Assembly: GCA_029565915.1 (NCBI GenBank)
Contig: JAKQNG010000204.1
Location: 8,755 to 72,754, forward strand
Direction: 5' to 3'
From: Deltaproteobacteria bacterium
GTDB taxonomy: Bacteria > Myxococcota_A > Polyangia > JAAYKL01
Length of the DNA stretch: 64,000 bases
Part shown: positions 3,001 through 46,362 of the stretch, in pieces
Layout of the letters: each line of letters starts with the position of its first letter
Position numbering within the stretch: position 1 is the stretch's first letter
Program-made: the position numbers and the translations under genes
The notes under the pieces: generated by a model
What the model saw: the letters and a program-made list of their open reading frames with translations, nothing else
Told to the model about the DNA's origin: nothing
Database searches by the model: none

Positions 3001-6000
3001 CGCCCTCCGATCACTGGATTCGACGTTGGCCGACGGTGCCTTCATCGACGGGTCCCGGCTGCTCGATCGGCTGGGCGTCGCGGAGCGGCACGAACGGCTC
3101 CTCCACGCCATGTTCGATCACCTCGTTGGCGCGGGCCTGGCCCGCCGGGAGTCCGCCGGGTGGCGCATGTCGGAATGGCCGAAAAAGGATGTCCGTCTGG
3201 TGGTGGCCAGGGCACAAACCGATCTGGCGCCTTTTGCCCGCGAAATTGAATTCTTCGCCCGGACCGGCGCCGAACTCGCCGCCGTGCTGCGGGGAGAAAC
3301 GGATCCGGGGGACGTGCTCTTTGCGGGAAACCGGTTTGACGAACTGGCCGACTACTACGCCAACTCCTTCACCACCGTCCGCATCAACCAGATGGCCGCT
3401 GACGCCTTCTGCGCGCTCCTTTCCACGGTTCCCGCCGGTCGTCCCCTGCGGGTGCTGGAGCTGGGCGCGGGCACCGGCGGCCTGACCCGGCACCTCCTGC
3501 CCCTGGTGGAAGAGCGGAACGGCACGTACCTGTTCACGGACCTGTCGCCCCTGTTCCTCGCCCGGGCGAGGGAAACCTTCAAGTACAACCCGGCAATGGA
3601 GTTCGCGGTGCTGGACATCGAAACGGATCCCGCTGCCCAGGGACAGATCCCTCACAGCTGGGACATCGTCGTCGCCTCGAACGTCCTTCACGCCACGGAG
3701 GACCTGCGCCGCACGCTGGCAAACTGTCGCTCCCTCCTGTGCGACAATGGCGTACTGTGCCTCGTCGAAGTGACAAGGGCGCCTCGATATCTCGATCTCA
3801 GCTTCGGCATGACCGAAGGCTGGTGGCGTTTCCGGGACGATGTGCGGACCGATCGCTGCACCCTGTCGGCGGAGGCCTGGCGCAGCGTGCTCGCGGAGTC
3901 CGGCTTTCCGGACGTGGCCGATTTCAGCGACGGCGAAGGACCGGATGCGGTGGCCCAGACACTGTTCGTTGCCCGGGCGCGAAGTGCTGCACAGGGAGAG
4001 CGGTTGGATCCGCGCCGTCCGAACGGCATCTGGCTGATCCTCGGCGACAATCGGGGCGTGTCCGCGGCGGTATCGGCCCTCCTCCGGGAGCGGGGCGATC
4101 GATGCATCCGCCTCACCTGCGCATCGAAAACGGCACCGACCGGTGTAGATCGCTTCGATTTCGATCCCGCCTGTCCGGACGCCCTCATCGACCATCTGCG
4201 GACCTTCGACGGACCTCTGCTGGGGGCACTGCACACCGCTTCGCTCGACCTGCCGCCCATCGAGGACAGCGACCCGACGGCGCTGCTGCGTGCGCAGGGA
4301 GACGGCGCCTGGTCGGCCATCGGCCTCGGCCGGGTGCTGTCCGCCGTGGGCAACGAGTCGTTTCTGTGGCTGGTCACCGCCGGTGTGCACGGCCCGACGC
4401 CGGCCCTGTCCCGGTCGCCCATGTGGGGTCTGGGTCGGGTGATGATGAACGAGCTCACCGGTGTGGCCGTGCGGCTGCTGGACGTGGACGGCGCCCTGCG
4501 GGTGGAGGACTGCGCGCGGATCGTGCAGGAGATGTGTGCGCCCTGTGCGGCGCCTTTCGAAGAAGAAATTGTTCTGCGGGACACGGGCCGCTTCGCAAAC
4601 GTCCTGGTGCGGGATCACCGGCCAAGGCGGATCGCCCGGGCCGTGCGGACGATTCCCTCCTGCGGGGCGACGGTGTCCCTGCGCCGGTCGTCCTCCTTTG
4701 TGCTGGACGATTGCATTTTCGTACCGTCGGACACGGCGATCTGCAGTGACGACGACGTAGCCATCGACGTGCATGTCGCGGGACTCAATTTCCGGGATGT
4801 GATGGTGGCCGGCGGAACCCTGCCGCGGGAAGCGGTGGAGGGCGGGCTTTTCGGCGATGCCCTCGGACTGGAGTGCGCGGGCATCGTGACGCAATGCGGC
4901 AGGCATGTCTCCCATGTGCGGGTGGGGGATGCGGTCATGGCCCTCGCCCGGGGGACCCTGTCGGGGCGCGTGGTCGCCCGGGGCGTTCTCACCCGGAAAA
5001 TTCCTTCGGGAATGGGGATGGCAGACGCCGCCGCCCTGCCTATGGCCCTGCTCACCGCCTGGTATTCGCTGGTGACCCTGGGCCGCCTGGAAGCGGGAGA
5101 GAGGGTGCTCATCCACGGGGCCGCCGGCGGGGTGGGCCTCGTGGCCGTTCAGCTGGCACAGGCCATGGGCGCTGAGGTATTCGCCACGGCGTCCAGGCCC
5201 AAGCACGACCTGCTGCGGGAACTGGGCGTCCGCTACGTGTTTGATTCCCGATCCGCCGCCTGGGCGGACGGGGTGGACGCCGCCGCGGAAGGGCGAGGGG
5301 TCAACGTGGTGCTGAACTCTCTCTCCGGCGTCCAGCTCACGCGGGGGCTGCGCCTGCTGGCGCCCATGGGTCGCTTCATCGAAATCGGCAAGGTGGACCT
5401 GTACGCAAACCGGCGCCTGGCCATGGGACTGTTGAAGGACAACGGCGCCTGGTTCAGTGTGGATATTGATCGGTTGCTGGTGCAGGCCCCGCAGAAGATG
5501 GCTGCCGCGTTCGATGAGGCCCTGCATTTCTTTGCGGTGCGCCGGTGGCCCGCACTGTCCGTGTCCGTGCATCCCTTGTCCGGGGCCGCTGATGCACTGG
5601 CCCTCATGGCAAAGGGCAACCATCGCGGTAAAATCGCGCTGGCCGCTGCGGATGTGCCGGTACACCCGGCCGAACACCTGACCGTGGCCAGGGACGGGGT
5701 ATTTCTCATCGCCGGGGGAACCCGGGGCTTCGGCCTTGCCGTGGGGACGTTTCTCGCGGACCGCGGTGCCCGGCACCTCGCCCTGCTGTCCCGGGGTGGC
5801 CTGCGAGGGGAAGAGGAAACCCGCGCGGTGGCCGCGCTGCGCCACCGGGGTGTGAATGTGGAAATTTTTGCGACAGACGTGACCGATCGCCTTGCTGTGG
5901 AGCGGGTGATTGCCGCCATTCATCGGGAGGAGCGTCCTCTGCGCGGCGTGTTCCAGTCCACGCTCGTGCTGGACGACGCCATGCTCGACCGGATGACCCG

Positions 6001-7549
6001 CCCCCAGCTGGACGGGCCCATGGCCCCCAAAGTGGCGGGCACCTGGAACCTGCACCTCGCCACGATCGGCATCCCCCTCGACTGGTTCGTCTCGTTTTCG
6101 TCCATCTCGTCCATTTATGGATTTCCCGGACAGGCGAACTATGCGGCAGCCAACCGGTTCCTGGACGATTTTGCCCTGTACCGTCGCTCCCTGGGGCTCC
6201 CCGGCACCACCATCAACTGGGGGGCACTGCAGGGCGCCGGATTCGTGGAACGCTCGGCCGCGGTGCGCAGTTTCCTCTCCAACAACGGCTGGGAAACGCT
6301 GACGCTGGAGGAGGCGCTGTCCGCCATGGAGCGCGTGCTGCTCGAAGGCCACCCGCAGATGGCCGTGTTCCGTGCGGACTGGTCCACCGTGGGACGCTCT
6401 TTCCCGGCCGGGTTGTCGTCCCTGCGGTTTGCCCATCTGCACGGCGCGGGTGCCGCCGAAAAGGACGACGGTGACCTGCGCGTGGCACTGACGGCGGCAG
6501 CTCCGGCGGCGCGGGCGATGCTGCTGCAGGGGTTCATTGCCGGGGCCACAGGGGCCATCATCGGTGCGGACGGCGCAAAGGTGGATCGACAGACGCCCCT
6601 CAACCGGCTGGGCCTCGATTCCCTGATGGCCAATCAGCTGCGCAGCGTACTGACCTCCCGCACGGGGGTCGAAATTTCTCTCATGCAGATCATGGCCGGG
6701 CCCACCATTGCGGATCTGGCCAACGAAATGGCATCCCGGTTCGAGAACACGGCGACGTCAGGCAGTGATCGTTCCGGTGGACAATGGGTGACGCGGGTCA
6801 CACCGGTTGCTTCACCGCAACTGCGGCTCTTCTGCCTGCCCTATCTGGGCGCCGGCGCCTCGATCTATTCGCGTTGGCAGGTGGGAGAAAACGTGGAGGT
6901 CTGTGCCATCGCCCTTCCCGGACGGGAAGAGCGCATCGGGGAGCCGCCTCTGACAGATGCCCATGAGTTGATCGAAACCATGGCCGGGGCTCTTCTGCCT
7001 CTGCTGGATGTGCCCTTTGCCATTTACGGCCACAGCTTCGGTGGAAACCTGGCCTTCAGCCTGGCGTCCTTCCTGCAGGAACGCCACGGAAAGGTACCCG
7101 ACCGCGTCTTCATCGGCGCCGCCGTGCCGCCGGGGATCGACAATCCCCTTGAAGAAGAGTTCCGCATTGCCGACAAGGATGAGGCCGCACGCCTCTCTGA
7201 CGACGCCCTGCGGGCGCTGCTCCAACGGCTCGGCGCACCGTCGGCGCTGATTCATGATGAAGCGGCGTTTTCCCGGATGGCACCGGCCCTGCGGGCGGAT
7301 CTGGCTATCGCCAAACAGCGTTTATTTCCGTCGGATCACCGTCTCCGCTGTCCCATCGTGGCCATTGCAGCCAGGGGTGACCACCTCTACAGCGAACAAC
7401 TTCTGCGTCACTGGCAACGGCATTCGGATGACTTTTCCCTGGAGGTTGTGAACGGCGGACACCTCTTCGTGCACGAAGACGAAGCAATGAAACACATACT
7501 GAAAATAATGTCACATCGATGGATCACACCGGCCCTGCGCTCGGCCTGA
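2..7549 (+). CDS. Type I polyketide synthase, 5'-truncated at the window edge. Domain order: KS (C-terminal part) - AT - DH - C-methyltransferase - ER - KR - ACP - thioesterase.
   Basis: The reading frame is open from nt 2 (RDGNRIYAAILGSAINEDGR... is a KS-like sequence). AT GHSIGE plus VPFHSH (malonyl-type). DH HxxxGxxxxP (HRVQGPLVFPGAGH). SAM motif LELGAGTGG. ER LIHGAAGGVGLVAVQLA. KR IAGGTRGFGLAVG. ACP LGLDSLMANQLRS. TE GHSFGG. Stop at 7547-7549. Confidence 0.9.
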   Translation, partial: RDGNRIYAAILGSAINEDGRTDGIAQPDKDAQVAVMRAAYADAGIDPSIVGLVEAHGTGTAAGDPVECSSIGQVIGAGRTDRCLIGSVKSNIGHTELASGSAGLIKLALSLFHGQAPPVVHFRTPNPKIDFDGWRLQVPVRVTPVPAREGIRYGAVNSFGFGGANAHLVLRSVPPAETRTTGEGPLCAPLFISARSEKSLRRLAGAYADLLEKGIDGRELAQQVIRHRSRLEDGLALTDPRHADAAARLRNFARGRDSEGVIPGRRQLPEKGQTAFVFSGQGPQWWGMGRELFSAGGVYRDTVEEVSDLLKQIGWLKEEGSDLVAELHRDEASSRMNETAVVQPALFALQLGLARLWMSHGVMPDMVVGHSIGEVAAACVSGALTVAEAVKVVYWRSRCQSRAAGRGRMLAVGLSAEDASGAIGTFGGKIDVAAINGPAMVTLAGDADALALLARGLEERGVFVRFLVVDVPFHSHLLDDVARAFCEEVPAIVSSPPRIPLYSTVTGLPVEGAVLDNDYWAANIRQPVQFYPTVQRMARDGAAAFIEMSPHPILANGLTAALSAAGTKGIVISSLRRKEPDIPTFSGNFCALWLAGGGIDRTVFGPGGAHLREPLPAYPFAEERFWLESPEARADRIGTRVHAHLASCTSAADDGNDQIWQVELDARCAPYIRDHRVQGPLVFPGAGHVDLALAAGMASFGDRLCFLEDIEFIRPLFVREDGEPDAVQLHVVGDEGDYTIAGRTAERDTPWTIFSKGRMNCLGEAFCTEPVSLKMLKARIVHPVALPPLFDVLDRGGLVLGDTFRGIRALWRGEGESLARIEAHPSIVHSLARHCIHPALLDAGFQSAFGILAQEERMGVYIPRRIGRVRFAGPPAGTVLYAWARAAGTDREHLRVDIRIFNEDGSDVLQVEGFEGQYLKGSRGEVDAVDSLFYRYELRPCARRDELVTHRLGAALAPPVPVDEAVRRTMDRHRADPLSARFFDALSPAMDELAMGVILDALRSLDSTLADGAFIDGSRLLDRLGVAERHERLLHAMFDHLVGAGLARRESAGWRMSEWPKKDVRLVVARAQTDLAPFAREIEFFARTGAELAAVLRGETDPGDVLFAGNRFDELADYYANSFTTVRINQMAADAFCALLSTVPAGRPLRVLELGAGTGGLTRHLLPLVEERNGTYLFTDLSPLFLARARETFKYNPAMEFAVLDIETDPAAQGQIPHSWDIVVASNVLHATEDLRRTLANCRSLLCDNGVLCLVEVTRAPRYLDLSFGMTEGWWRFRDDVRTDRCTLSAEAWRSVLAESGFPDVADFSDGEGPDAVAQTLFVARARSAAQGERLDPRRPNGIWLILGDNRGVSAAVSALLRERGDRCIRLTCASKTAPTGVDRFDFDPACPDALIDHLRTFDGPLLGALHTASLDLPPIEDSDPTALLRAQGDGAWSAIGLGRVLSAVGNESFLWLVTAGVHGPTPALSRSPMWGLGRVMMNELTGVAVRLLDVDGALRVEDCARIVQEMCAPCAAPFEEEIVLRDTGRFANVLVRDHRPRRIARAVRTIPSCGATVSLRRSSSFVLDDCIFVPSDTAICSDDDVAIDVHVAGLNFRDVMVAGGTLPREAVEGGLFGDALGLECAGIVTQCGRHVSHVRVGDAVMALARGTLSGRVVARGVLTRKIPSGMGMADAAALPMALLTAWYSLVTLGRLEAGERVLIHGAAGGVGLVAVQLAQAMGAEVFATASRPKHDLLRELGVRYVFDSRSAAWADGVDAAAEGRGVNVVLNSLSGVQLTRGLRLLAPMGRFIEIGKVDLYANRRLAMGLLKDNGAWFSVDIDRLLVQAPQKMAAAFDEALHFFAVRRWPALSVSVHPLSGAADALALMAKGNHRGKIALAAADVPVHPAEHLTVARDGVFLIAGGTRGFGLAVGTFLADRGARHLALLSRGGLRGEEETRAVAALRHRGVNVEIFATDVTDRLAVERVIAAIHREERPLRGVFQSTLVLDDAMLDRMTRPQLDGPMAPKVAGTWNLHLATIGIPLDWFVSFSSISSIYGFPGQANYAAANRFLDDFALYRRSLGLPGTTINWGALQGAGFVERSAAVRSFLSNNGWETLTLEEALSAMERVLLEGHPQMAVFRADWSTVGRSFPAGLSSLRFAHLHGAGAAEKDDGDLRVALTAAAPAARAMLLQGFIAGATGAIIGADGAKVDRQTPLNRLGLDSLMANQLRSVLTSRTGVEISLMQIMAGPTIADLANEMASRFENTATSGSDRSGGQWVTRVTPVASPQLRLFCLPYLGAGASIYSRWQVGENVEVCAIALPGREERIGEPPLTDAHELIETMAGALLPLLDVPFAIYGHSFGGNLAFSLASFLQERHGKVPDRVFIGAAVPPGIDNPLEEEFRIADKDEAARLSDDALRALLQRLGAPSALIHDEAAFSRMAPALRADLAIAKQRLFPSDHRLRCPIVAIAARGDHLYSEQLLRHWQRHSDDFSLEVVNGGHLFVHEDEAMKHILKIMSHRWITPALRSA

Positions 7550-13091: not shown

Positions 13092-14798
13092 CTACTGAGG
13101 CGGGAGCAGAGCGGTGAAGGAGCCGTCCGTGGCCACAGTGGAGCGGCCCACCAGGTAGGCGACCTGGCTGAACACCCGGTACCATTCCACGGACAGATCC
13201 CGCAGGTCGTCCGGATCGCCGCCCACGCCCGGTTCGAGTTCGAGGTGTCCCCGGATGCGGAAAGGGACGGTCAGTCGGATGGCATAGGTAAAGGTTTCGG
13301 ACTGACGGATGTTCCACACGCCGGTACCGGCGGCCCAGCCGCTCTCCAGGGGTGCCCGGGCCACCGCATGGTACAGGGAGTTGTCCAGCCAGATGGCGAA
13401 GGTGCCTTCCCGGCCACTCAGGGCGCTCAGACGATTGAGACCGCCCTGGCTGTTTTCAAGGTCGAAGGTTTCGATGGTGGCCATGGGTACGGTCGGGCCC
13501 GGGGATCCGGGCGCAGCGATGGTCCCGGTGATGGACAGGCGGGACGGCAACATCACAACAAAGGGTGCGCTGCCCGCGACTGTTACCTCCAGAAGGGCTT
13601 CCAGCCGGGCGGCGGAGCAGGTGGAGGGACTGCCGTCCAATGCCGCAACGGGAATGGCGGTGACCGCGTACAGCCCCGGATACAGATAGATCCCCGGATA
13701 GCCGTTCTGCCGTTCCACCTGCCCGTTGTCATTCGTATACACATCGTAGGACAGGGACGCGTGGCCCGTGTCGTCCTGCAGCGTCATCCGGATGCGGGTG
13801 CGGGGCGGCGGCGGCGGCATGGCGGATTCGGACTGGACCTGTACGGATCCTTCCACCATCACCGGCAGGGCGGGCAGCGGGATTTCGTACGTCTCACCGG
13901 TGCGCGTCACGTCGTTCACGTCGAAGTGATAAACCGGATGAAAGGGTTCGCGCTCCTTGAACACATCGATCCGCATGGAACGGACCCCCGGCGCCAGGGT
14001 CAGCTCGAACCACCCGCATTCTCCCTCCGGCCGGCATCCGGAGCGCACCGTCGACGACACCACCCGGGACGTGGCGGCATCCCGCGCCACCACCGAAAAA
14101 TCGTTGGCGGAAAAGGTTTCGCCGCTGTTCTGGCGATGAATCAGGTATCCCGAAAACGGTACGTAGGAAAAGTCCTCCTCCGCGTGAGGCATCCTCAGGT
14201 CGGCGGGAACGCCGTCCCCGTCAAGGAATGCGCCATTCGTGTCAACGAGGATTTCGCCTTTTGACAGCACCGGATAGAGGGCCGCGTCGTCGCCATCGGG
14301 CACCAGTGTCACTTCATAGCGGCCGGGAAGGAGGTGAAAATCACTGGCCGTCGCCCCCGCGTTGTACACTTCGATGCCCGGTTCCCGGCCGGGCAGGGCA
14401 TTGTCGAGGTCGAGGAAGACGACCCGGCCGACCATGGCGGGCTCGATGGACGACGTCCGGACCCGGGCGCGAACAGTCAGGAGCAGGTCCTCGCTGGTTT
14501 CCATGGGCACTTCAATGCGCTGGGGCCCGGTGCCGTCCCGTCCGCCGGTCAGCACGCGCGCCAGCAGCAGGGCATCCACGGCCGGTTGCGCGATGCAGAT
14601 GGATTCGTCAAGGTCACAGGCCCCCGTGGCGCAGTCCCCGTCGTCATTGCAGCGGTTGACCGGTCCGTCGTAACGCCACGCGTTGTCCACTTCCAGAGAC
14701 GACATGCACCCGCCAGAGGCCCAGACCAGGGCCATGACGGCGGCGCGGACGGCGGGGCCGATCCGGGGCCTACAACAGGTTCTGCGCGAATATTTCAT
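13092..14798 (-). CDS. Large secreted or lipoprotein of unknown function (568 aa).
   Basis: N-terminal R-rich n-region plus a hydrophobic segment ending in GGC. Repetitive beta-rich sequence. Last gene of the activator operon. Confidence 0.5.
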   Translation of the reverse strand: MKYSRRTCCRPRIGPAVRAAVMALVWASGGCMSSLEVDNAWRYDGPVNRCNDDGDCATGACDLDESICIAQPAVDALLLARVLTGGRDGTGPQRIEVPMETSEDLLLTVRARVRTSSIEPAMVGRVVFLDLDNALPGREPGIEVYNAGATASDFHLLPGRYEVTLVPDGDDAALYPVLSKGEILVDTNGAFLDGDGVPADLRMPHAEEDFSYVPFSGYLIHRQNSGETFSANDFSVVARDAATSRVVSSTVRSGCRPEGECGWFELTLAPGVRSMRIDVFKEREPFHPVYHFDVNDVTRTGETYEIPLPALPVMVEGSVQVQSESAMPPPPPRTRIRMTLQDDTGHASLSYDVYTNDNGQVERQNGYPGIYLYPGLYAVTAIPVAALDGSPSTCSAARLEALLEVTVAGSAPFVVMLPSRLSITGTIAAPGSPGPTVPMATIETFDLENSQGGLNRLSALSGREGTFAIWLDNSLYHAVARAPLESGWAAGTGVWNIRQSETFTYAIRLTVPFRIRGHLELEPGVGGDPDDLRDLSVEWYRVFSQVAYLVGRSTVATDGSFTALLPPQ

Positions 14799-15279
14799 AC
14801 ACCCACATCACCTGCAGGGTGCGCGCCCCATCGGGCGTTTCGTCCCCCGCGTCGTATCCCCGGTCCGACAGCTCCATCATCACGATGAGATTGGACGCGT
14901 CATCGCTGACTGCCCGCATGGTGATGGCGCAGTTCACGGTGACCACCACGCCGCCATCAAAGGAGGAAGCATCGCCCCGCACCGGCTCGCTGCACGAGAA
15001 CGTGTCCTTGAGCTGGACCGACGAACTGAGCTGTTCAATCAGGGTGATGCGGCCTTCATATCTCGAAAAATCGTCGTCGTCCGGATCCCAGACGGTCACT
15101 ACGAATTCGGTGAGCGTGTTGTTTTCGGCATAGTTGACCCCTTCCACCGGCGGATCTGCCGAAACGAACTGAGGGGGCTGGTTCCGCCGCAGGCTGAATT
15201 CGATTTCGTCCGACACCACGCAGGCGTCGGCGAGGACGGAAACGAGGATCAGAACGGCGACGGGGACAACGGGCTTCAT
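14770..15279 (-). CDS. Small secreted lipoprotein (169 aa).
   Basis: Signal peptide [20 protein letters not shown]. Its ATG overlaps the stop of the upstream activator gene (ATGA). Confidence 0.55.
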   Translation of the reverse strand: MKPVVPVAVLILVSVLADACVVSDEIEFSLRRNQPPQFVSADPPVEGVNYAENNTLTEFVVTVWDPDDDDFSRYEGRITLIEQLSSSVQLKDTFSCSEPVRGDASSFDGGVVVTVNCAITMRAVSDDASNLIVMMELSDRGYDAGDETPDGARTLQVMWVYEIFAQNLL

Positions 15280-17141
15280 GCCTTTTCCAGATAGCGGTAG
15301 ATGGTGCGCGGATCCACATCCAGCTCTTCGGCGGTCTGTACCCGGTTTCCACCGTTCTTTTCGAGGGCATCGAGGATGTACTGCCGCTGGAATCGCTCCC
15401 GTGCCTCCGCCAGGGTCTCTCCCTTCCGCGCCGTCTCTTCGCCCAGATCGAGATCATCGGGCCCCACCATTGAGCCGTCGCACAGGATGACCGCCTTCTT
15501 GATGCGGTTTTCCAGCTCCCGCACATTGCCGGGCCACGAGTGGCGTCGGATGGCGGCCATGGCGCCGGGACTGAACCCTTTCGCGGCGGAACCGAATTCG
15601 TCCGCGTATCGCTGCAGCAGATAGCGGGCCAGCAGGAGCACATCGTCTCCCCGCTCCCGCAGGGCCGGCAGCTCGATGTGTATGACGTTCAGCCGATAGT
15701 ACAGGTCTTCCCGGAACGCGCCCCGTCGGATTTCCTCCTCCAGGTTGCGGTTGGTCGCGGCCAGCACGCGGATGTCCAGGGTTTCGGTCTTCGTGGCGCC
15801 GACTTTCACCACCTGATGTTCCTGCAGTACCCGCAGAATTTTCACCTGCAGGGCCATGGGCATCTCGCCGATTTCGTCGAGGAAGATCGTGCCTTTGTCC
15901 GCAGCCTGGAACTTGCCGGGCCGGGTGGCTTCCGCACCGGTGAACGCACCTTTCACGTGACCGAAGAACTCCGATTCCATGAGGGTTTCGGGGATGGCGC
16001 CGCAGTTCACGGTGACAAAGGGACCCTGGCGCCGCTGACTCCGGCGGTGGATTTCCCGGGCGATGAGTTCCTTCCCGGTACCCGTTTCGCCGCCGATGAG
16101 CACGGACACTTCCGTGGCCGCCACCTTTTCCACCGTCTTGAACACCTGCTCCATGACCGGCGATGCACCGATAATCTCGCCGAACCGCTGATTGTCCAGC
16201 TCCCGGGACAGGGCCTCGTTGCGCAGCTTCAGCTCGTTCAGCAGCAGGGCGTTCTGCACGATGAGGGAGGCCTGGGCGGCGAACACCTTCAGCAGCTCCA
16301 GAGTGCCGGGCTCGAACAGGCCCCGCACCGTGTCGTTGCCCAGATAGATCAGCCCCAGCAGCTCGTCCTTGTGCTGCAGGGGCGCACACATCACCGAGCT
16401 GAGTTTCAGGTTGATGACGGATTGGGCGTGGGCGAACTTGTCGTGGCTCTGGGCGTCCGATACGATGATGGCGCTGCGGCTCTGCACCACCTGCGCCACG
16501 ATGCTGTCTGACAGCTGGCTCACCGCGGAGCCCAGGTTTTCCCGGTGCAGGTTTCTGGCCACCTTGATGATGGGCTCCCCGTCTTCAAACAGGATAAGAA
16601 ATCCCTTGGCCGCGCCCGTGATCTCGATGACACCGTCCATCAGTGCGTCGAGGACCTCGTCGACGGAGCCATGGCTGAAGAGGGAACTGGTGAACTCCTG
16701 CAGCTTGTGAAGGCCCGCCAGCTCCGCGCCCCGCCCGGATTCCCTGGAACGCACCGCGGATTCCGCCAGCATGCTGAATACGAAATCCGCCCGGCCCAGG
16801 GCAAATCGGTCCTGGTGGGCGAGGCGGCTCCGGCGCTTCTTTTTACCGTTCAGCACAAAGTCGTCGCCGTCCTCGATGCAGGCAAGGGAAAAATCCTTCC
16901 CGTCGAACACGAGCTGCACGTGGTAGGGCGCCAGGCCCAGATCCCTGACGACCACATCGTTTTCGGGGGCGGCGCCGATGGTGGTGATCGCTTTGGCAAT
17001 GGCGATACTGCTGCGATTGCCGTCTGTTGATCGCCAGCTGAGCGTGGGCATGAATCGTTCTTCCTGTTGGGACGGAGACGCCGGAATCCGCCTGTTGCCA
17101 TCTGTCTGCCGCAGTGTAGGACAAAACGGCAGTTCGCTCAA
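15276..17141 (-). CDS. Sigma-54-dependent transcriptional activator with N-terminal FHA and GAF domains (FHA-GAF-AAA+ sigma-54 activation domain-HTH).
   Basis: AAA+ motif [21 protein letters not shown] motif ([15 protein letters not shown]). C-terminal Fis-type HTH ([19 protein letters not shown]). N-terminal FHA-like segment and a GAF region. Confidence 0.9.
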
Positions 17142-17203
17142 TACGTCTCGGGGTGTCCGACGATGACGTTGACATTTCTTCGTTGCGTGACCATACGCAA
17201 CCC

Positions 17204-17636: not shown

Positions 17637-18578
17637 TCAATCGATGAGGTTGAATTCGCGGACGATCTGGAAACCGAACACCAGCTCCTTGAAGCCGCGC
17701 CGGGAATTGGCAACGATGCCATCCGCGCTCATGTACTGGGAATTGGCCACCACCAGGGAAAACGAGTGGCGGTGGGTGAGCACCCGGGCAGCAAATCCGA
17801 AAACCGGGTAATCCGCGCCGAATCCGGCCACATTGGCGGCGATTTCCGCATTGAGTGAAAAGCGCGGAATCGGACGCCATTCCAGATATCCGAGCACTGC
17901 CGCCGACGGATCCGGAGACTCCACAACCTTGGTTTCGCCGGAGGAATCCGTGTGGAATGCGAATCCCGCACCGAAGAGCAGACATTTCCACAGACGTCGA
18001 TCCAGCAGGATCTGTCCAAAGAATCCCGATGCGTCCTTTGCATCCTTCTGGACGAACCAGGTGCCGCCGATGACGATGGCCGCGTTGATGTAGTGGTACT
18101 GCTGCCGGAGCAGGTTCAGCTTTGTGTCGAACTGATAGACATCAAACAGATCGGTGCCGTTGCTCAACCGGTAAAAGCCCGCGTCCAGGAAGTCGAAGAT
18201 GCCGTAGCGCAGGCCGAGGCCCATTTTCAGGTTGCCCGCGTCCAGCCCCAGATAGTCGAACCAGGCGTCCTCCCCGCTGATGAACGAGGCATGGGCCCGA
18301 TGGTCAACCGTGAGCACGAGGGCGCCCTTCCGGGCGGTCAGCGTCGTCGGTACGTTGATGACCCGATCGGTCCGCGGCACGTTTTTTCCAATGTAGTGGA
18401 TGCCCAGGTGGCGATCTTCCGCCGCGGGCGCGGACACCGGTTGTTCCGTGTCGGCCACCGGCGTTGCCGTGCCGGATGTCCCCGATCCGTCTGCCTTTTC
18501 CTGCGCCGGCACAACGGCGGGAATCGTCATCCAGCCGGCGATGATCATCCATCGGAGCCCCTGTTGCAGCGTCGTCAT
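17637..18578 (-). CDS. Putative outer-membrane beta-barrel protein, unknown family.
   Basis: Signal peptide (MIIAGWMTIPAVVPAQE). Alternating amphipathic beta-strand-like segments. Lies 46 nt downstream of the FHA-GGDEF gene on the same strand. Confidence 0.45.
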   Translation of the reverse strand: MTTLQQGLRWMIIAGWMTIPAVVPAQEKADGSGTSGTATPVADTEQPVSAPAAEDRHLGIHYIGKNVPRTDRVINVPTTLTARKGALVLTVDHRAHASFISGEDAWFDYLGLDAGNLKMGLGLRYGIFDFLDAGFYRLSNGTDLFDVYQFDTKLNLLRQQYHYINAAIVIGGTWFVQKDAKDASGFFGQILLDRRLWKCLLFGAGFAFHTDSSGETKVVESPDPSAAVLGYLEWRPIPRFSLNAEIAANVAGFGADYPVFGFAARVLTHRHSFSLVVANSQYMSADGIVANSRRGFKELVFGFQIVREFNLID

Positions 18579-18624: not shown

Positions 18625-19566
18625 CTATTTCACGATGGAGGCCACAACCCGGTTTCTGCCTTTCTGCTTGGCCTCGTAGAGGTTTTCATCCGCCGTGCGC
18701 AGCAGGGCATCGCCGTTCATCACTCCGGCACCGCAGAGGGTGGCCGCACCGAGGCTGATGGTAACCGGCACACGAATGCCTTCTTCGGTCAGGATGCGCA
18801 GGTCCTGGACGATCTGACGCAGGCGTTCCGCCAGAGCCACCGCCCCTTCCGGCGCGATGTTGCGCGCCAGCACCACGAACTCCTCGCCGCCGTACCGGGC
18901 CGCCAGATCCTCCCCCCGCAGGGTGCGGGCCACGGCGCGAGCCACCCGGCACAGTACATCATCGCCGACGAGATGGCCCCAGGTGTCGTTTACCTTTTTA
19001 AAGTGATCGAGGTCGAACAGGATGGCGGACAGATGCGTACGGTGGCGCACGGCAAAGGACAGCTCGCTGCGGAGCATGTCGTCGAAATACCGGCGGTTGA
19101 AGACCCCGGTCAGTCCGTCCTTCACTGCGGATTCGTACATCTGCGACTGGTAGTGTTCGTCAAACGTGTCCACCCGCATGAAGCGCAGGATGGTGGAGCG
19201 GCCCAGGACCACCTTGTCCCCTTCGGAAAAGACGTGGCGCGCCACCCGTTCCCGTCCTACCCAGATGCCGTTGGTGCTGTTCATGTCTTCAATGATGCAG
19301 CGGTTCTGATCGTCGAGGACCACGCGGGCGTGAATCCTTGAAATCCCGTCATCGGAAATGATGAAATCGCACTCCTCGCCGCGGCCGATGAGCATGGGTG
19401 ATCGATCAATGATGAGGGAGCTGCCCCGGTCGATACCCTGCACCACGATGAGGGAGGGTCGCAGGGAGCTGCCCTCCCGGGCCGTGAGCATGTTCACCGT
19501 GGAGCGGTCGAAATTGAGGGTGATGTCCTCCTGCGGCAGCGCGATTTTGTCCGTTTTCTTCTGCAT
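18625..19566 (-). CDS. FHA-domain diguanylate cyclase (FHA-GGDEF).
   Basis: FHA core (LIGRGEECDFIISDDGISRIHARV...STNG). GGDEF domain with intact GGEEF and an RxxD I-site (RGED five residues upstream). Start ATG at 19566; the ORF-track N-terminal extension is rejected. Confidence 0.9.
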   Translation of the reverse strand: MQKKTDKIALPQEDITLNFDRSTVNMLTAREGSSLRPSLIVVQGIDRGSSLIIDRSPMLIGRGEECDFIISDDGISRIHARVVLDDQNRCIIEDMNSTNGIWVGRERVARHVFSEGDKVVLGRSTILRFMRVDTFDEHYQSQMYESAVKDGLTGVFNRRYFDDMLRSELSFAVRHRTHLSAILFDLDHFKKVNDTWGHLVGDDVLCRVARAVARTLRGEDLAARYGGEEFVVLARNIAPEGAVALAERLRQIVQDLRILTEEGIRVPVTISLGAATLCGAGVMNGDALLRTADENLYEAKQKGRNRVVASIVK

Positions 19567-19611
19567 GGGTCTTCCGGCAACTGGCGCCAGAATAGCGCAG
19601 GTCGGGCTTTC

Positions 19612-19640
19612 TTGACATACCTGTGGAAAGGTATTACTAT
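19612..19640 (+). promoter_or_regulatory. Near-consensus sigma-70-type promoter for the PilZ operon: TTGACA - 17 nt - TACTAT.
   Basis: TTGACA at 19612-19617 and TACTAT at 19635-19640 with a 17-nt spacer, inside an AT-rich 110-nt divergent intergenic region. RBS AGGAGA at 19664-19669. ATG at 19679. Confidence 0.5.
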
Positions 19641-19678
19641 GTAAACAATTTAAGTACATTGTAACAGGAGAAATCACA

Positions 19679-20143
19679 ATGTCACACAACAAGCGTTCCC
19701 AGTTCCGCGTGCCCGAATCCCGGCTCATCACCGAGTTTTCGAAAAACACACCTTTCGCGTCGAGCATTGTCAACCTGAGCTTCGACGGGTTGTACACGGT
19801 CAAGCCCTGCGAAAGCCTGACGACACCCCGGGGTCTCATCCAGCTCGAAATCCCGGTGCCCGAGGCAAGCGAGTCCATCTGGGCCACCGGCGAAGTGCTG
19901 TACGAGCACCACGGCGCAAAATCCGTGGGAACGGGTATCCGCCTGCGGAACATGGCGCAGTTTCACCGCAACCTGCTGCGGGATCTGGTGGAAAGCGGTC
20001 GCCGACAGGTACTGGCGGACATGCTGCAGCAGATTCTGTGGCAGCGCCAGCTCGCCCAGTATCCTACGCTGTTCGATGCCCCGGCGCCGCCGGTGACCGA
20101 GCACACGGTGCCCATGTTCCGCCTCGCGGACCTGCACCCCTGA
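19679..20143 (+). CDS. PilZ-domain c-di-GMP-binding protein.
   Basis: RxxxR motif RSQFR and (D/N)xSxxG motif NLSFDG at the expected spacing. Confidence 0.75.
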   Translation: MSHNKRSQFRVPESRLITEFSKNTPFASSIVNLSFDGLYTVKPCESLTTPRGLIQLEIPVPEASESIWATGEVLYEHHGAKSVGTGIRLRNMAQFHRNLLRDLVESGRRQVLADMLQQILWQRQLAQYPTLFDAPAPPVTEHTVPMFRLADLHP

Positions 20144-20189: not shown

Positions 20190-20735
20190 ATGAACCCGGC
20201 CCCTGCCATTGATGCCCGGTCCGCCCTCCTGCGGCGGGGCGGCACCAGCTTCGCCCTCGCCGCCGTGGCATTTGCCCGGGGAACCCGGAACTGGCATGCC
20301 CTGTCTGTATCGCTCACCCATCCGGCTGATGAAATTCGATCTGTCATCGAAGAACACCCCGGTGCGGGCGCCCTCGCCGCCGCCGCAGACAGGGCCTTTT
20401 CCGACAGCCCCGGCGAACTGCCGGACTGGCTCGACGCTCTGACGGACGACGGACTGGTCCGCCTCGGCGATCGCCTGGCACCCCTCTGGCCCCCTTCGGG
20501 CGGTGCCCCGCTGCGGGGACGGGACGGCGGCATCGCGTCCCTGGCCATCGCGTTCTGCCGGCGCATGGATCGCATCCGGGCCATGGGCGACCGGTTGCCT
20601 CCGGAGGATGCCCGACAGCTTCTGCGCCGGGCCCGGCTCGCGGCCGTCCAGGTGGAACCCGGCGCGCCGAGCGCCATGAAACGGCAGATCCGCTCGCTGG
20701 TGGAAGGCGGCAACCATGGGACGACTCATCCGTAA
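20190..20735 (+). CDS. Hypothetical protein (181 aa), Ala/Arg-rich, unknown function.
   Basis: Intact ORF between the PilZ and FliH-like genes. Its 3' end overlaps the next gene by 20 nt. Confidence 0.4.
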   Translation: MNPAPAIDARSALLRRGGTSFALAAVAFARGTRNWHALSVSLTHPADEIRSVIEEHPGAGALAAAADRAFSDSPGELPDWLDALTDDGLVRLGDRLAPLWPPSGGAPLRGRDGGIASLAIAFCRRMDRIRAMGDRLPPEDARQLLRRARLAAVQVEPGAPSAMKRQIRSLVEGGNHGTTHP

Positions 20736-21165
20736 AACCGACCTGCCCGTATCGCCGCCGCTGCTCTCCTGTCCGGACCCGGCCCTCCTGTTTCTCCTGG
20801 AGGCCCGGGCCGAAGGGGAACGGTTCATCGCGCAGGCGAAGGAGGACCTCGTGCAACTGGCCGTGACCATGGCCGGCCGGCTGGCGGGCACGACCCTGGC
20901 CCTCGATGCCGCGCAACGGGAATCCCTTTACAAAGACGCTGTCAAACGGGCAGGCGCCCGCTCCTGTGTACTGCGGGTCCATCCGCAGGATGCGACGTCG
21001 ACTTCGCTCTGCAACCGGGCAGAGGATGCGGGATTCGACGTCGTGGCGGACGAATCCCTCATACCGGGGGACTGCGTGGTGGACGCGGGCGGCGTGACGG
21101 TAGACCGGCGGTTGTCCGTCCTGTTGTCCGTCATGGAAGAGGCCCTGCGGCGGAGGCTGCCGTGA
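20716..21165 (+). CDS. FliH/YscL/HrpE-family-like protein (peripheral-stalk or ATPase-regulator homologue), orphan.
   Basis: The C-terminus CVLRVHPQDA...GFDVVADESLIPGDCVVDAGGVTVDRRLSVLLSVMEEAL parallels the FliH C-terminus (LRVHPDDL...GGC.V....G.LDASV). Confidence 0.5.
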   Translation: MGRLIRKTDLPVSPPLLSCPDPALLFLLEARAEGERFIAQAKEDLVQLAVTMAGRLAGTTLALDAAQRESLYKDAVKRAGARSCVLRVHPQDATSTSLCNRAEDAGFDVVADESLIPGDCVVDAGGVTVDRRLSVLLSVMEEALRRRLP

Positions 21166-22091
21166 CGCCGTCGGGAACCCGTCGCCCCTGGGTCAACGGG
21201 TTGCTCTTCGCGCTGACCGTGCTGTCGGTGTTCGGCGCCGGCGTGTTCCACCTGTCCGCCCGCACCATGGACGAGGCCCTCTGGAACGGCGTTGTCTTCG
21301 CCGCCTCGGTCATGGGCATCCTGTGCGCCCACGAAGCCGGACACTACCTGATGGCCAGGAAGAACCGGGTGGATGCATCCCTGCCCTATTTCATTCCCGT
21401 GCCGCCGTTCTTTTCCCTGTTCGGCACCCTCGGCGCCGTCATCGTGATGCGCGGCCGCATCCGCTCGCGGGACGCACTGATGGAGGTGGGCGCGGCGGGA
21501 CCTCTGGCGGGCATGGCGGTGGCGTTGCCCCTGCTGCTCGTCGGGCTGGCGCGCTGTCCGTTGATGAAGATTCCCGAGGCGGCATGGATGGAGGGCCAGT
21601 CCCTGTTGTACCTGGCGGCCAAATCCATGGTGGTGGGCCCCATCCCGCCCGGCTGGGACGTGGCCCTGGATCGCTCCCCCATGGCGTTCGCCGGCTGGTT
21701 CGGCATGCTGATCACCATGCTGAACCTGCTGCCCATCGGTCAGCTGGACGGCGGACACATCTTTTACGCCCTGTTCGGAGACCTCCACGAAAAAGTATCG
21801 CGGCTGTTCCACCGCCTCCTGTTCGCCTTCGGACTCGGCGTGGCAACCTTCTACGGGCTCGACGCCTACGGGCGGGGACTCGCGCCGGATGCCGTGGCGG
21901 AAGCGGCGATACCGGGTTTCAGCTGGATTTTCCTGGGGATCATCATGGCCGTCGCCTTCCGCAGGAAAGGATTTTCCCACCCTCCCACGGACGATCGGAT
22001 CCTGTCTCCGCGCGGCCGCGCAGTCGGCATCGCCTGCCTCGTCCTCTTTGCCGTTACGTTCATGCCCGTGGTCATGCGGCCGATCGTCTGA
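21162..22091 (+). CDS. Site-2 protease family (M50) intramembrane zinc metalloprotease.
   Basis: HEAGHYLMA (HExxH). NLLPIGQLDGGHIFY (LDG motif). Polytopic membrane protein. GTG start overlaps the upstream stop (GTGA). Confidence 0.8.
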   Translation: MTPSGTRRPWVNGLLFALTVLSVFGAGVFHLSARTMDEALWNGVVFAASVMGILCAHEAGHYLMARKNRVDASLPYFIPVPPFFSLFGTLGAVIVMRGRIRSRDALMEVGAAGPLAGMAVALPLLLVGLARCPLMKIPEAAWMEGQSLLYLAAKSMVVGPIPPGWDVALDRSPMAFAGWFGMLITMLNLLPIGQLDGGHIFYALFGDLHEKVSRLFHRLLFAFGLGVATFYGLDAYGRGLAPDAVAEAAIPGFSWIFLGIIMAVAFRRKGFSHPPTDDRILSPRGRAVGIACLVLFAVTFMPVVMRPIV

Positions 22092-42893: not shown

Positions 42894-43124
42894 ATGAACG
42901 AAATGTTACTGCAGGGGCTTGAACTGATGGCAGCCGGCATGGGAACGGTCTTTCTGTTTCTCATCATCATGGTCTACGTGATGCACCTGTCGGGCGTGAT
43001 CCTCCGGCGGATGGGCACCGGCGAGACCGCGTCACCGGGTGGCGGCAGCGCGGGCGCCGGCGGGGATTCTCTTGAACAGGTTGCTGTGGCAATTGCAGCG
43101 GCGAAACGTCATACGCAGGGTTGA
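42894..43124 (+). CDS. oadG: Oxaloacetate decarboxylase gamma subunit.
   Basis: 76 aa with one N-terminal TM helix (LMAAGMGTVFLFLIIMVYVM). Located immediately upstream of oadA. Confidence 0.7.
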   Translation: MNEMLLQGLELMAAGMGTVFLFLIIMVYVMHLSGVILRRMGTGETASPGGGSAGAGGDSLEQVAVAIAAAKRHTQG

Positions 43125-43137
43125 AAGGACAACGAAC

Positions 43138-44946: not shown

Positions 44947-44973
44947 TTGTTCCTTCTGCAAGGAGAAGTTCCC

Positions 44974-46362
44974 GTGACGAATACAAAGAATACCTTTCTG
45001 CGGATGTCCCGCTCCTGGTGGATTGCCTTCCTGGCCATCCTCGTCGTCGGCACGGCGGCCTCCGCCCTGCTGGCAGCGGACGACAGCGCCCCTGCTCAGT
45101 CGCCTATTGTGGAACCGGATGGTTCGCCGGTGGTGGAGCAGAAGGATAACGCCTTCATGAAGCTGGTGAAGAGCACCGGTCTCTACGCCCTGGCGCAGGG
45201 ATTCATCGAGCTCGGCGGCGGCACGCCGTCGCCAGTGCCGGAGATGGGCTTCCGCCCCAAGAAAAACGTGGAAAAGGAAAAACCCCTGCTGCCGGACGGC
45301 GTGGGCAAGGTGGTGATGATCGCCGTTTCCCTGCTGCTGATCTGGCTGGCCATCAAGAAGGGCTTTGAACCCCTGCTGCTGCTGCCCATCGGCTTCGGCG
45401 GCATTCTGGCAAACATTCCGGTGGAGCACATCGCGGGGCCGGATGGTTTCCTCGGCATCATCTTCGGCTTCGGCATTTCCAACGGCCTCTTCCCCCTGTT
45501 CATTTTCATGGGGGTGGGTGCCATGACCGATTTCGGTCCCCTCATCGCGAATCCGAAGACCGCCCTGCTGGGCGCGGCGGCCCAGTTCGGCATCTTCGCC
45601 ACCCTGCTGGGCGCCATCGCCCTCGGTTTTGACATGCGGGAGGCGGCCTCCATCGGCATCATCGGCGGCGCGGACGGCCCCACGTCCATCTACGTGACGG
45701 TGCGCATGGCCGAACACCTGCTCGGTGCGGTGGCGGTGGCCGCCTATTCCTACATGGCGCTGGTGCCCATCATCCAGCCGCCCATCATGCGCCTGCTGAC
45801 CACAAAGGCCGAGCGGGCCATCAAGATGGACCAGCTGCGGTTCGTGAGCAAAACCGAAAAAATCGTATTTCCGCTGGTGGTGCTGGGCCTGTGCATCCTG
45901 CTGCTGCCCAGCGCGACGCCCCTCATCGGCGCCCTGTGCTTCGGCAACCTGGTGCGGGAAGCGGGTGTGGTGGAGCGGCTCAGCAAGACCCTGCAGAACG
46001 AATTCATCAACATCGTCACCATCCTGCTGGGCCTCACCGTGGGGTCCAAGCTCTCCGCCGACAAGTTCCTGTGCCTCGGCACCCTGAAAATCCTGGTCCT
46101 CGGATGTGCGGCCTTCTCCCTCGGCACCGCCGCGGGTGTGGTGCTCGCAAAAATCATGAACAAATTTTCCAAGTCCCCCATCAATCCCCTCATCGGCTCA
46201 GCCGGCGTATCCGCTGTGCCCATGGCCGCCCGGGTGTCCAACACCGTGGGACTCGAGGCCAACAAGACCAACTTCCTGCTCATGCACGCCATGGGTCCCA
46301 ACGTCTCCGGCGTGATCGGTTCCGCGGTGGCCGCCGGCGTTCTCCTCGCCCTCATCGACTGA
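44974..46362 (+). CDS. oadB: Na+-translocating decarboxylase beta subunit.
   Basis: Polytopic OadB-family membrane protein. RBS AAGGAG, then a GTG at 44974. The ORF-track start at 44947 is a non-ATG codon. Confidence 0.9.

Follow-up and report, generated by a model that had tools for sequence, protein, structure and literature searches.

Several NtrC-family enhancer-binding proteins (EBPs) are encoded beside the sigma-54-dependent operon that they target, PspF with pspABC and NorR with norVW being examples, and many such cases are found in Myxococcus and Desulfovibrio. The activator dealt with here, encoded on a 64,000-nucleotide stretch of deltaproteobacterial DNA (the window), shares with them an AAA+ domain carrying GAFTGA, a C-terminal Fis-type helix-turn-helix (HTH) and an N-terminal sensory region, although the latter consists of a degenerate FHA-like domain and a GAF domain, with no receiver domain. 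In the sister clade of the group to which the window belongs (the window clade: the window together with loci L011-L014), an inverted repeat about 100 nt upstream of a candidate TGGCAC-N5-TTGC promoter beside the regulator gene is a further point of likeness, but the enhancer predicted there overlaps the regulator's own stop codon. The window clade also departs from the NtrC-family pattern in having neither promoter nor enhancer, and the genes for a pair of lipoproteins overlap the regulator gene.

EBPs with an FHA domain are said to have been described in Myxococcus xanthus by Jelsbak, Givskov and Kaiser in 2005. The combination of an FHA-type N-terminus with a sigma-54 activator is common to those proteins and the present one, as is a delta-proteobacterial or myxobacterial lineage (L014 is labelled Polyangia). 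By contrast, no clade of the present family has the phosphothreonine-contacting Ser, and the window clade is without the Arg as well; there is an additional GAF domain, and no kinase partner was found nearby. Another relative at the domain level is the YscD/EscD family, a component of the inner-membrane ring of type III secretion systems, as Yop-YscD_cpl is the best Pfam model for activator residues 20-93; the likeness is confined to the domain, the activator being a transcription factor.

That components of the envelope and exterior come under sigma-54 control is a theme already described (PMC3162934). For the larger of the two proteins encoded downstream of the activator, the comparison is with beads-on-a-string proteins of the transthyretin-like/CarboxypepD_reg/CnaB type, among them the carboxypeptidase D regulatory domain, the N-terminal extension of SusC, Gram-positive pilins and adhesins, NOMO and macroglobulin MG arrays. 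Differences from those surface proteins are predicted lipid anchoring via an N-terminal Cys, not LPXTG or a TonB barrel, a 4-Cys knot that the family has for itself, and a conserved ...ALLPP C-terminus.

Gene order and overlaps

Three successive minus-strand ORFs, 15276..17141, 14770..15279 and 13092..14798, all with GC3 of a coding type (0.79-0.81), make up the locus. The sequence-only reading began the first of them at TTG 17141, a start now replaced by ATG 17051, giving an EBP gene of 15276..17051 (591 aa), because the MPTLSW N-terminus is conserved; the approximately 25 activator homologues all open with MPTLSW or MPSLKW. Position 17141 instead opens a -35-like hexamer, TTGAGC. It lies in the upstream intergenic region (17052..17203) that is shared with a divergent Pyr_excise gene, and is part of a weak sigma-70-like candidate, TTGAGC-17 nt-TACACT (17141-17113, match 8/12), that is to be regarded as tentative since its score is below the threshold of the promoter scanner. 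A -10-like TACAGT/TACACT is kept in L012-L014.

Next on the same strand is the gene for a small lipoprotein (14770..15279, 169 aa), whose product has a signal peptide, Cys20, the motifs VV.DEIEF, N-x-PP and WDPD, and Cys96/Cys117, and then that for a large lipoprotein (13092..14798, 568 aa) with a signal peptide, Cys31, a 4-Cys knot and serial transthyretin-like/CarboxypepD_reg beta-sandwiches. Both overlaps initially proposed were borne out: an ATGA joins activator and small gene at 15276..15279 (TGA 15276-15278, ATG 15277-15279), and 29 nt are common to the small and large genes at 14770..14798, with the ATG of the latter at 14798. Two observations support this M1 start and, with it, the 29-nt overlap: Cys31 is invariant, and an AGGTGAT Shine-Dalgarno sequence (14807-14813) lies 8 nt upstream of the start. 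Terminators between the genes, raised at the outset as the finding that would tell against coupling, were sought by a terminator scan, and there is no terminator-like hairpin at either junction of the three-gene unit.

The tightness of the arrangement extends to relatives. Within the window clade the gap between activator and small gene is 1-16 nt in the relatives (-4 to +16 nt with the window included). At the small/large junction, L012 has an 11-nt overlap, L013 an ATGA, as does the marine clade, and L035 a 5-nt gap; across relatives, junction distances range from -29 to +22 nt. In the window, stop and start codons overlap or abut with no terminator between them, as is characteristic of a translationally coupled operon, and in the window clade the three genes probably form one compact operon of this kind, to judge from their sequence.

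The activator and its input

The Pfam domains of the activator are FHA/YscD-like, GAF, Sigma54_activat, AAA_lid_14 and HTH_8, all encoded on the minus strand. The Sigma54_activat match (PF00158, 15672..16175) is full length (1-168/168, E=2e-73), and within it Walker A (GETGTGKE, 16068-16091), the GAFTGA sigma-54 contact loop (residues 368-373, 15933-15950) and Walker B (FLDEIGE, 15864-15884) are all intact. The Fis-type HTH (PF02954, E=3.4e-10, 15285..15401) runs right up to the stop codon; in the alignment, sister-clade activators continue for about 10-20 residues beyond it. With Walker A and B, GAFTGA and the C-terminal HTH present, the protein has the domain features of an EBP. None of the NCBIfam sigma-54 activator models reaches its equivalog cutoff, the best being PEP_resp_reg at 378 bits vs 503. 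Among the window ORFs scanned there was no rpoN. The domain makeup first proposed thus stands for GAF (Pfam GAF/GAF_2/GAF_3, 16254..16667), for AAA+ with its intact GAFTGA and for the Fis-type HTH, but the match to FHA is only marginal.

The N-terminal domain in question (residues 20-93, 16773..16994) scores 22.4 bits on Pfam FHA PF00498 (cutoff 20.7) and higher, 39.2 bits (cutoff 33.2), on Yop-YscD_cpl PF16697; among PDB sequences there is a weak match to GarA (E=0.026). From the FHA label it had been argued that the domain reads a phospho-Thr mark set by a Ser/Thr kinase, making the module a kinase-responsive switch for surface proteins. Beyond the marginal passing of the Pfam cutoff, such a view can draw on FHA-containing EBPs reportedly being on record in Myxococcus xanthus, and on a canonical FHA-GGDEF protein encoded 1.5 kb from the module. 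Alignment of the domain to GarA and to that neighbouring canonical FHA, followed by comparison across clades, is mostly unfavorable to it. The arginine of the GR position is retained (IGR) in most sister-clade members, but is Ala in the window (IGA, 16956-16979) and Ser (IGS) in L012-L014 and in L030; at SxxH, every clade has Ala, Asp or Glu in place of the phosphate-contacting serine (LAPYH in the window, 16920-16934), though the His is kept; and the Asn position is not conserved. The better score is on a model for the YscD family, which is known for an FHA fold without the pThr-binding residues. Neither Pkinase nor PP2C was found by Pfam among the window ORFs scanned or among the sister-clade neighbor genes scanned. 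Kinase input is not supported, because the pThr-binding residues are missing and no Ser/Thr kinase turned up among the nearby ORFs scanned, and we consider a kinase-responsive switch improbable. It is more likely that the signal enters via the highly conserved GAF domain than by phospho-Thr recognition; in the alignment, GAF is the best-conserved portion of the N-terminal sensory region, long stretches of it being invariant among window-clade members. A more general caution is that an 'FHA' label is not to be equated with 'kinase input' where the phosphate-binding residues are absent.

Two lipoprotein families

Judging by signal peptide and invariant cysteine, both downstream proteins are likely to be envelope lipoproteins. 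After the signal peptide of the small protein, Cys20 (15220-15222, minus strand) is invariant in all 16 of the small-family sequences (16/16), and Cys31 of the large protein (14706-14708, minus strand) aligns with a post-signal-peptide Cys that is invariant in 31/31 large-family members. Set against the lipobox [LVI][ASTVI][GAS]C, the window pair, with L-A-D-A-C and A-S-G-G-C, are both off-consensus at -3; many relatives carry good lipoboxes (VAGC, LLGC, VSGC, LMSC, LMGC). Public calls of the large gene start at M32 (JGI/ENA, 537 aa) or M22 (NCBI, 547 aa), with loss of the signal peptide, and a correction of annotation is in order as these truncated calls hide the lipoprotein nature of the product.

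Of the two lipoproteins, for both of which fold prediction had been proposed, the small one probably consists of just one Ig-like beta-sandwich. For the large one, modeling gives with confidence a chain of transthyretin-like 7-stranded beta-sandwiches, and the predicted architecture would be adhesin- or stalk-like and non-enzymatic. Foldseek matches to the TIE, PitA and SpaC arrays have E-values as low as 9e-9; global TM-scores amount to only 0.1-0.2. Its description as 'repetitive' is apt in a structural sense, in that predicted beta-sandwich domains follow one another in series, but not at the level of sequence, as BLASTP self-comparison yields no internal repeat. The family, with 51 representative relatives, is further marked by the 4-Cys knot near the N-terminus (C50, C56, C61 and C68 in the window protein) and by conservation of its C-terminal ...ALLPP. 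No Pfam model, PF13620 (CarboxypepD_reg) included, matches the window large protein; PF13620 does match 10/31 of its relatives, at best with E=4.7e-7. Neither lipoprotein family is covered by any Pfam or NCBIfam model.

Conservation of the triad

Three loci from MAGs, L011 (which is partial) and 19 loci from metagenomes were compared, with activators 52-71% identical to that of the window. Wherever a related locus extends far enough downstream, the activator gene is followed by the small and then by the large lipoprotein gene, and the prospect that the lipoprotein genes would not be found downstream of the activator in relatives did not materialize. With tblastn, the triad of L012-L014 shows 70-71% identity for the activator, and 34-41% and 31-33% for the other two. 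Activator identity to the sister clade is 52-59%, and there a profile search places the large family 0.5-0.65 kb beyond the end of the EBP gene in 19/19 metagenome loci with enough sequence, with a small lipoprotein ORF occupying the interval between. The flanking genes differ between clades while order and strand of the triad are kept, in agreement with the self-contained module of the sequence-only reading. The unit is a conserved three-gene module of uncultured Deltaproteobacteria/Myxococcota-type bacteria, its hosts being sediment, digester and MAG lineages of these groups. Midpoint rooting of the tree places the root between the window clade and the rest, which favors neither loss nor gain of the spacer described below.

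A candidate sigma-54 promoter in the sister clade

In the sister clade the spacer between EBP and small gene holds sites resembling sigma-54 promoters, located +74 to +125 relative to the EBP stop. Matches are 11/12 in L016 (TGGCACCGCGCTTGCA), L017 (TGGCACTCGCGTTGCA), L018 (CGGCACGTGGGTTGCT) and L030 (TGGCACGCGCTTTGCG), 10/12 in the marine clade (CGGCATGGCCTTTGCT) and 9/12 in L035 (GGGATCGAAGTTTGCA). A palindrome, TGACAT-NN-ATGTCA, is present at, or at most 35 nt from, the EBP stop in every sister-clade lineage except L019, and is 70-90 nt upstream of the -24 element. The start of the small gene follows the GC of the -12 element by 14 nt in L017, L030 and L035, by 17 nt in the marine clade and by 20 nt in L016, and these starts give good signal peptides. 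In L018 there is no canonical start codon after the promoter-like site, and L019 has the EBP but neither palindrome nor promoter in 475 nt of sequence.

A palindrome and a near-consensus sigma-54 promoter before the small gene suggest, at the level of sequence, that the activator serves the lipoprotein pair as its dedicated regulator. An opposing view is that the EBP regulates the pair in no lineage, the motifs being due to chance or coding and the linkage being inherited gene order. It can be said for it that the regulatory model derives from sequence alone, that the window clade is without any such promoter, and that the 10/12 motif of the marine clade overlaps an in-frame ATG (MAFASKF...); since that start gives a more typical signal peptide, with Lys in its n-region, the motif there could be kept for coding reasons. 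It has to contend, however, with 11/12 matches in four separate lineages within the same ~100-nt spacer, as against none in a background of 354,780 bases of the same loci (7 matches of at least 10/12, 0 of at least 11/12; 0.003 per 150 nt), with the keeping of the 70-90 nt and 14-20 nt spacings in spacers that are otherwise unalignable, and with persistence of the triad while every flanking gene changes. We judge it very improbable. That the activator controls surface proteins, as originally supposed, is accordingly a good reading for the family, given promoter and palindrome in the sister clade, but not visibly so for the pair in the window.

The window clade

In the window clade the spacer is missing, with the small gene abutting or overlapping the EBP stop. 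Neither a palindrome nor a conserved GG-N10-GC is present between -450 and +700 around the EBP gene, and in the window itself no sigma-54 promoter was found in or upstream of the module. In the window, the pair looks to be expressed along with the activator, with no visible control by it.

Could a diverged sigma-54 promoter be hidden here, either upstream of the EBP gene, for positive autoregulation, or in its 3' coding region? The EBP has stayed intact under strong constraint (its GAFTGA and Walker motifs; 70% identity between genomes whose GC is 53-63%), which means that somewhere there must be a promoter for it to act on, and there is an 8/12 GG-N10-GC match at -60 from the ATG (CGGCAGACAGATGGCA) and a 10/12 match inside the EBP gene at 15631. 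Neither, though, is kept at the aligned position in L012-L014; the GG-N10-GC positions that are conserved encode conserved protein motifs and are without a TTGC -12 element; and the window module region has no TGACA/TGTCA palindrome. Nor did the search for GG-N10-GC sites proposed at the outset find an excess in the window, with 54 sigma-54-like sites observed vs 76 expected. A cryptic promoter of this sort is unlikely, and co-expression remains the preferred reading for the window clade.

Two arrangements of one module

On the model that we consider moderately probable from these sequences, the sister-clade EBP would act through an enhancer and a sigma-54 promoter for the pair, while in the window clade EBP and lipoproteins would be on one transcript. 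For the sister clade, palindrome, promoter and start geometry are the reasons for proposing that the EBP binds TGACATNNATGTCA as predicted enhancer and drives sigma-54 transcription of the pair from the TGGCAC-N5-TTGC element, the resulting mRNA probably being leaderless or having a very short leader. In the window clade a promoter upstream of the EBP gene would drive all three genes as one transcript, with translation probably coupled across the overlaps, and lipoprotein output would track EBP expression, not EBP activity. Since it is still intact, the window EBP presumably has a sigma-54 target elsewhere.

A quite unlikely elaboration is that the pair in the window clade takes part in the workings of the EBP pathway, for instance by sensing at the envelope or by feedback; its level would then have to track that of the regulator, and it would signal back via a transducer to the GAF or FHA-like domains. 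If it were true, linkage would have been kept without the regulatory wiring, and the pair would not be mere cargo.

The module and two lipoprotein families outside Pfam and NCBIfam are now defined, and for most members there is a concrete, testable regulatory model comprising enhancer, promoter, geometry and a probably leaderless start. The two architectures of the one module, own sigma-54 promoter vs overlap, could show how a sigma-54 circuit is rewired; aside from this, the arrangement is an ordinary one of regulator plus target.

Gene structure and start codons

Three minus-strand ORFs succeed one another at 13092-17141 of the window, namely an activator (EBP, enhancer-binding protein; 15276..17051), a small lipoprotein of 169 aa (14770..15279) and a large one of 568 aa (13092..14798), and all three look coding, since GC at third positions is 0.79-0.81 as against 0.39-0.50 at second positions. 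The activator stop and the ATG of the 169-aa ORF overlap as ATGA (15276-15279), and the end of the latter overlaps the ATG of the 568-aa ORF by 29 nt (14770-14798). This anatomy, with both overlaps, is as proposed by the earlier sequence-only reading, subject to three corrections; no terminator-like hairpin separates the genes at either the activator/small or the small/large junction.

Because all of the about 25 activator homologues begin MPTLSW or MPSLKW, the true activator start is ATG 17051 (591 aa), where JGI gene calls also place it, and not the TTG at 17141 first suggested. That TTG opens the -35-like hexamer of a sigma-70-like candidate, TTGAGC-17 nt-TACACT, whose -10-like element recurs, as TACAGT, ahead of the orthologous genes of three related MAG loci (L012-L014); at only 8/12, under the promoter scanner's threshold, the candidate is tentative. 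For the large protein, public gene calls use M32 (JGI/ENA, 537 aa) or M22 (NCBI, 547 aa), with either of which the 29-nt overlap disappears. All these calls begin within the signal peptide or beyond it, and miss the family-invariant lipobox Cys31. The 568-aa start, and with it the overlap, is upheld by that cysteine, by a signal peptide ending at it which only M1 supplies, and by an AGGTGAT Shine-Dalgarno sequence 8 nt upstream of M1.

Conservation of the triad

The three MAG loci, two of 'Deltaproteobacteria bacterium' and one of 'Polyangia bacterium', were found by scanning genomes with the alignment of the large protein (a scan with the small-protein alignment gave no match), and in each the order and strand of the triad are those of the window, with identities to it of 70-71% for the full-length activator, 34-41% for the small protein and 31-33% for the large. 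The same activator-small-large junctions recur on a 966-nt contig (L011), which is placed in the window clade by its junction and not by the activator tree. A reverse metagenome scan with the FHA-like and GAF region of the activator alone gave 27 loci, the window organism included (L015). The activator tree, midpoint rooted, divides the window and L012-L014 from a sister clade comprising L016/L017, L018, L019, L030, L035 and a marine-sediment group. Of the sister-clade loci whose sequence extends far enough downstream, 19 of 19 proved on profile search to have a large-family ORF at 0.5-0.65 kb beyond the activator stop, and a small-family ORF fills the gap between. Flanking genes differ between the clades and are not common to them, so the triad is the conserved unit; retention of the lipoprotein ORFs downstream of the activator in relatives was a point on which the proposal of a module could have fallen, and here the proposal stands. 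Elsewhere the small-to-large junction is an 11 nt overlap (L012), ATGA (L013 and the marine clade) or a 5-nt gap (L035), and overlap or near-abutment almost everywhere suggests that the two lipoproteins are needed together. In the literature searched, general sigma-54/EBP papers, no description of the activator-small-large triad was found.

Activator domains and signal input

Pfam domains of the activator are Yop-YscD_cpl/FHA, GAF, Sigma54_activat (E=2e-73), AAA_lid_14 and HTH_8, with Walker A (GETGTGKE), GAFTGA and Walker B (FLDEIGE) intact. Every NCBIfam sigma-54 activator model scores well under its equivalog cutoff, and the protein is accordingly not an orthologue of a named regulator. The window-clade activators are without a C-terminal tail of ~10-20 residues present in the sister clade.

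Canonical FHA domains bind the phosphate through two residues, an Arg in a Gly-Arg loop and a Ser in a Ser-x-x-His loop (e.g. Rad53 FHA1 R70/S85). On alignment to GarA (PDB 2kfu/6i2p) and to a neighbouring FHA-GGDEF protein, whose FHA is fully canonical (IGR, SRIH, STNG), the window activator has IGA and LAPYH at the phosphate-contact positions. Throughout the activator family, in all clades, Ala, Asp or Glu takes the place of the Ser, and the Arg is missing from the window clade and from L030. With these contacts replaced, with a YscD-type FHA-fold model outscoring the FHA model, and with neither Pkinase nor PP2C found in the window ORFs that were scanned, the phospho-Thr input through FHA that had been proposed, and hence the overall notion of a Ser/Thr-kinase-responsive module, is not supported. 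Long stretches of the GAF domain are invariant across the window clade, and it appears more likely to be the sensor than the FHA-like domain.

The two probable lipoproteins

Neither the small nor the large protein matched a Pfam or NCBIfam model, they have no sequence similarity to each other, and word-index homology searches with both gave only self and one 56% homologue. Exhaustive search for the large protein gave 51 representative relatives, nearly all of 550-610 aa and colinear. Across an alignment of 31 sequences Cys31 never varies and closes a hydrophobic signal peptide in each; four further cysteines (C50, C56, C61, C68) are invariant in a knot, Y.GP.N.C....DC..G.C.....C, and there are recurrent LPG.Y/LYPG.Y.VT..P motifs and a conserved C-terminal EWY...ALLPP. 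The AlphaFold2 model made from that alignment is all-beta and confident (pLDDT 86.6, pTM 0.79). Its Foldseek matches are to multi-domain pilin/adhesin and macroglobulin arrays, with E down to 9e-9 and TM-scores of only 0.1-0.2; PF13620 (CarboxypepD_reg) is matched by 10 of the 31 relatives, and no catalytic domain is visible. On this evidence the large protein appears to be a chain of beta-sandwiches on a lipid anchor, resembling a stalk or adhesin. Its earlier description as repetitive holds in that structural sense and not for the sequence, the 568 aa being free of internal repeats. Resemblances of the four-Cys knot to ICK toxins (E 0.03-0.3) and of the small protein to N-cadherin (E 0.96) are not significant and are leads only. 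The window lipoboxes, LADA/C and ASGG/C, are off-consensus at position -3 (those of many relatives are canonical), and for this reason lipoprotein status of both window proteins is probable rather than proven.

Two proposed regulatory architectures

Sister-clade loci have a 75-130-nt spacer after the activator stop, in which are found a palindrome (TGACAT-NN-ATGTCA) and a sigma-54-like site (GG-N10-GC type, TGGCAC-N5-TTGC, scored as matches out of 12). The palindrome, at the stop or ≤35 nt from it, is TGACATCGATGTCG in both L016 and L017, GGACATGGATGTCA in L018, TGACAGCGATGTCA in L030, TGACATTAATGTCA in the marine group and TGACGGCGATGTCC in L035. The corresponding sigma-54-like sites, with distances from the activator stop, are TGGCACCGCGCTTGCA (L016, 11/12, +125), TGGCACTCGCGTTGCA (L017, 11/12, +89), CGGCACGTGGGTTGCT (L018, 11/12, +117), TGGCACGCGCTTTGCG (L030, 11/12, +105), CGGCATGGCCTTTGCT (marine group, 10/12, +74 to +76) and GGGATCGAAGTTTGCA (L035, 9/12, +89). 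Outside the spacer, both strands of the same loci contain 7 sites of ≥10/12 and none of ≥11/12 in 354,780 bases, a background of 0.003 per 150 nt. Palindrome centres are 70-90 nt upstream of the -24 element, and a start codon with a good lipoprotein signal peptide follows the -12 GC by 14 nt (L017, L030, L035), 17 nt (marine) or 20 nt (L016). Judged from sequence, this geometry of palindrome, promoter and start is the classic EBP enhancer-promoter layout together with its target, and implies that the lipoprotein-pair mRNA would be leaderless or have a very short leader. The sigma-54-like motif of the marine group runs across an in-frame ATG, and a start there would yield a signal peptide of more typical form. 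In L018 the predicted promoter is not followed by a canonical start codon, and neither palindrome nor sigma-54-like site is present in the 475 nt available for L019. A second, shorter inverted repeat, TGACA-N(0-3)-TGTC, is found ~35 nt after the first palindrome in some marine-clade spacers (L021 7858, L026 6761, L027 2029) and could be a second activator site.

In the window and L012-L014, neither a TGACA/TGTCA palindrome nor a GG-N10-GC element both well matched and conserved is found in the stretch about the activator gene (-450 to +700). The only site of ≥10/12 within the module, at 15631, is inside the lid-coding region and absent from orthologues; a candidate promoter within the HTH-coding region (TGGATGTGGATCCGC) was rejected, its -12 GC being present in the window only and not in L011-L014. 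A search of all 64 kb for the sigma-54 promoters envisaged by the sequence-only reading gave 54 sites as against 76 expected from shuffles, with no intergenic site of ≥10/12 save possibly one at 55751 (-) in a doubtful ORF. That site, AGGAACGGTCCTTGCA (10/12), is the best in the window and is within a low-GC stretch (~54800-56100, 0.55); the ORF there, 55104-56033, with GC3 at only 0.48, is probably non-coding. Scanning the window for the palindrome at 2 mismatches gave 3 matches, 1.5 being expected, with none near the module.

Relative to the activator stop, the small gene starts at -4 in the window, +1 in L013, +4 in L014, +4 to +16 in L012 and +8 nt in L011. This abutment is kept between genomes of 63% and 53-55% GC, and the tight activator/small junction originally noticed is, on comparison of these loci, a clade-level feature. 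The most economical reading for the window clade is that one promoter ahead of the activator gene would serve all three genes as a single transcription unit, and that translation of each lipoprotein gene would be coupled by termination-reinitiation to that of the gene before it. The activator being fully intact, its target in this clade is presumably a sigma-54 promoter at some other place in the genome. Since the midpoint root separates the two architectures, either loss of the spacer in the window clade or its gain in the sister clade is possible.

Neighbouring genes

Three lineages of the sister clade, the marine one, L030 and L035, have a gene for Lnt (apolipoprotein N-acyltransferase; LNT_N and CN_hydrolase) that converges on the large lipoprotein gene (L036 10135-11886, L035 10251-11822 and L030 9929-11551, all (-)); the window has none. 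A divergent PilZ gene lies immediately upstream of the activator in the marine group, and 1.5-3 kb upstream of the module in the window are the gene for the FHA-GGDEF diguanylate cyclase (18625-19953 (-)) and a weak PilZ-domain ORF (19679-20143 (+); 21.9 bits, just under the cutoff of 22.5). There is here a weak hint of envelope or lipoprotein biogenesis and of c-di-GMP, with neither kept across all clades. A heme-biosynthesis cluster (HemX/CcsA-like, hemA, hemC, hemB, hemL, hemE, hemN) follows the large gene by 45-90 nt on the same strand in L012-L014 (L012 7225-13175, L013 11749-20344, L014 11807-21762); it is absent from the window and was judged unrelated. A DUF5777 membrane beta-barrel gene (17637-18578 (-)) is just upstream of the module on its strand, with a divergent pyrimidine-dimer glycosylase gene between, and does not accompany the module at other loci.

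Elsewhere in the window, a highly reducing type I polyketide synthase module is truncated where the window begins; the 2515 or more residues encoded at 2-7549 (+) cover the KS C-terminus, AT, DH, C-methyltransferase, ER, KR, ACP and TE. A FliH-like ORF and an M50 site-2 protease gene overlap at 20716-22091 (+), the region around them showing nothing else of flagellar or type III secretion type, and at 43039-46362 (+) an oxaloacetate decarboxylase alpha-like gene (carboxylase and biotinyl domains) adjoins that for a Na+-translocating beta subunit.

Relation to known systems

The triad resembles the familiar pairing of an EBP with a sigma-54-dependent envelope operon next to it, and control of the cell exterior by sigma-54 is a theme already described (PMC3162934). 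New are the two lipoprotein families without a Pfam or NCBIfam model and the sensory region of a degenerate FHA-like domain with GAF. New also are the two arrangements of the regulator with its lipoprotein pair: in the window lineage the pair and the regulator gene overlap, no promoter being recognisable between them, and in the sister clade an apparent enhancer would overlap the regulator's own stop codon.
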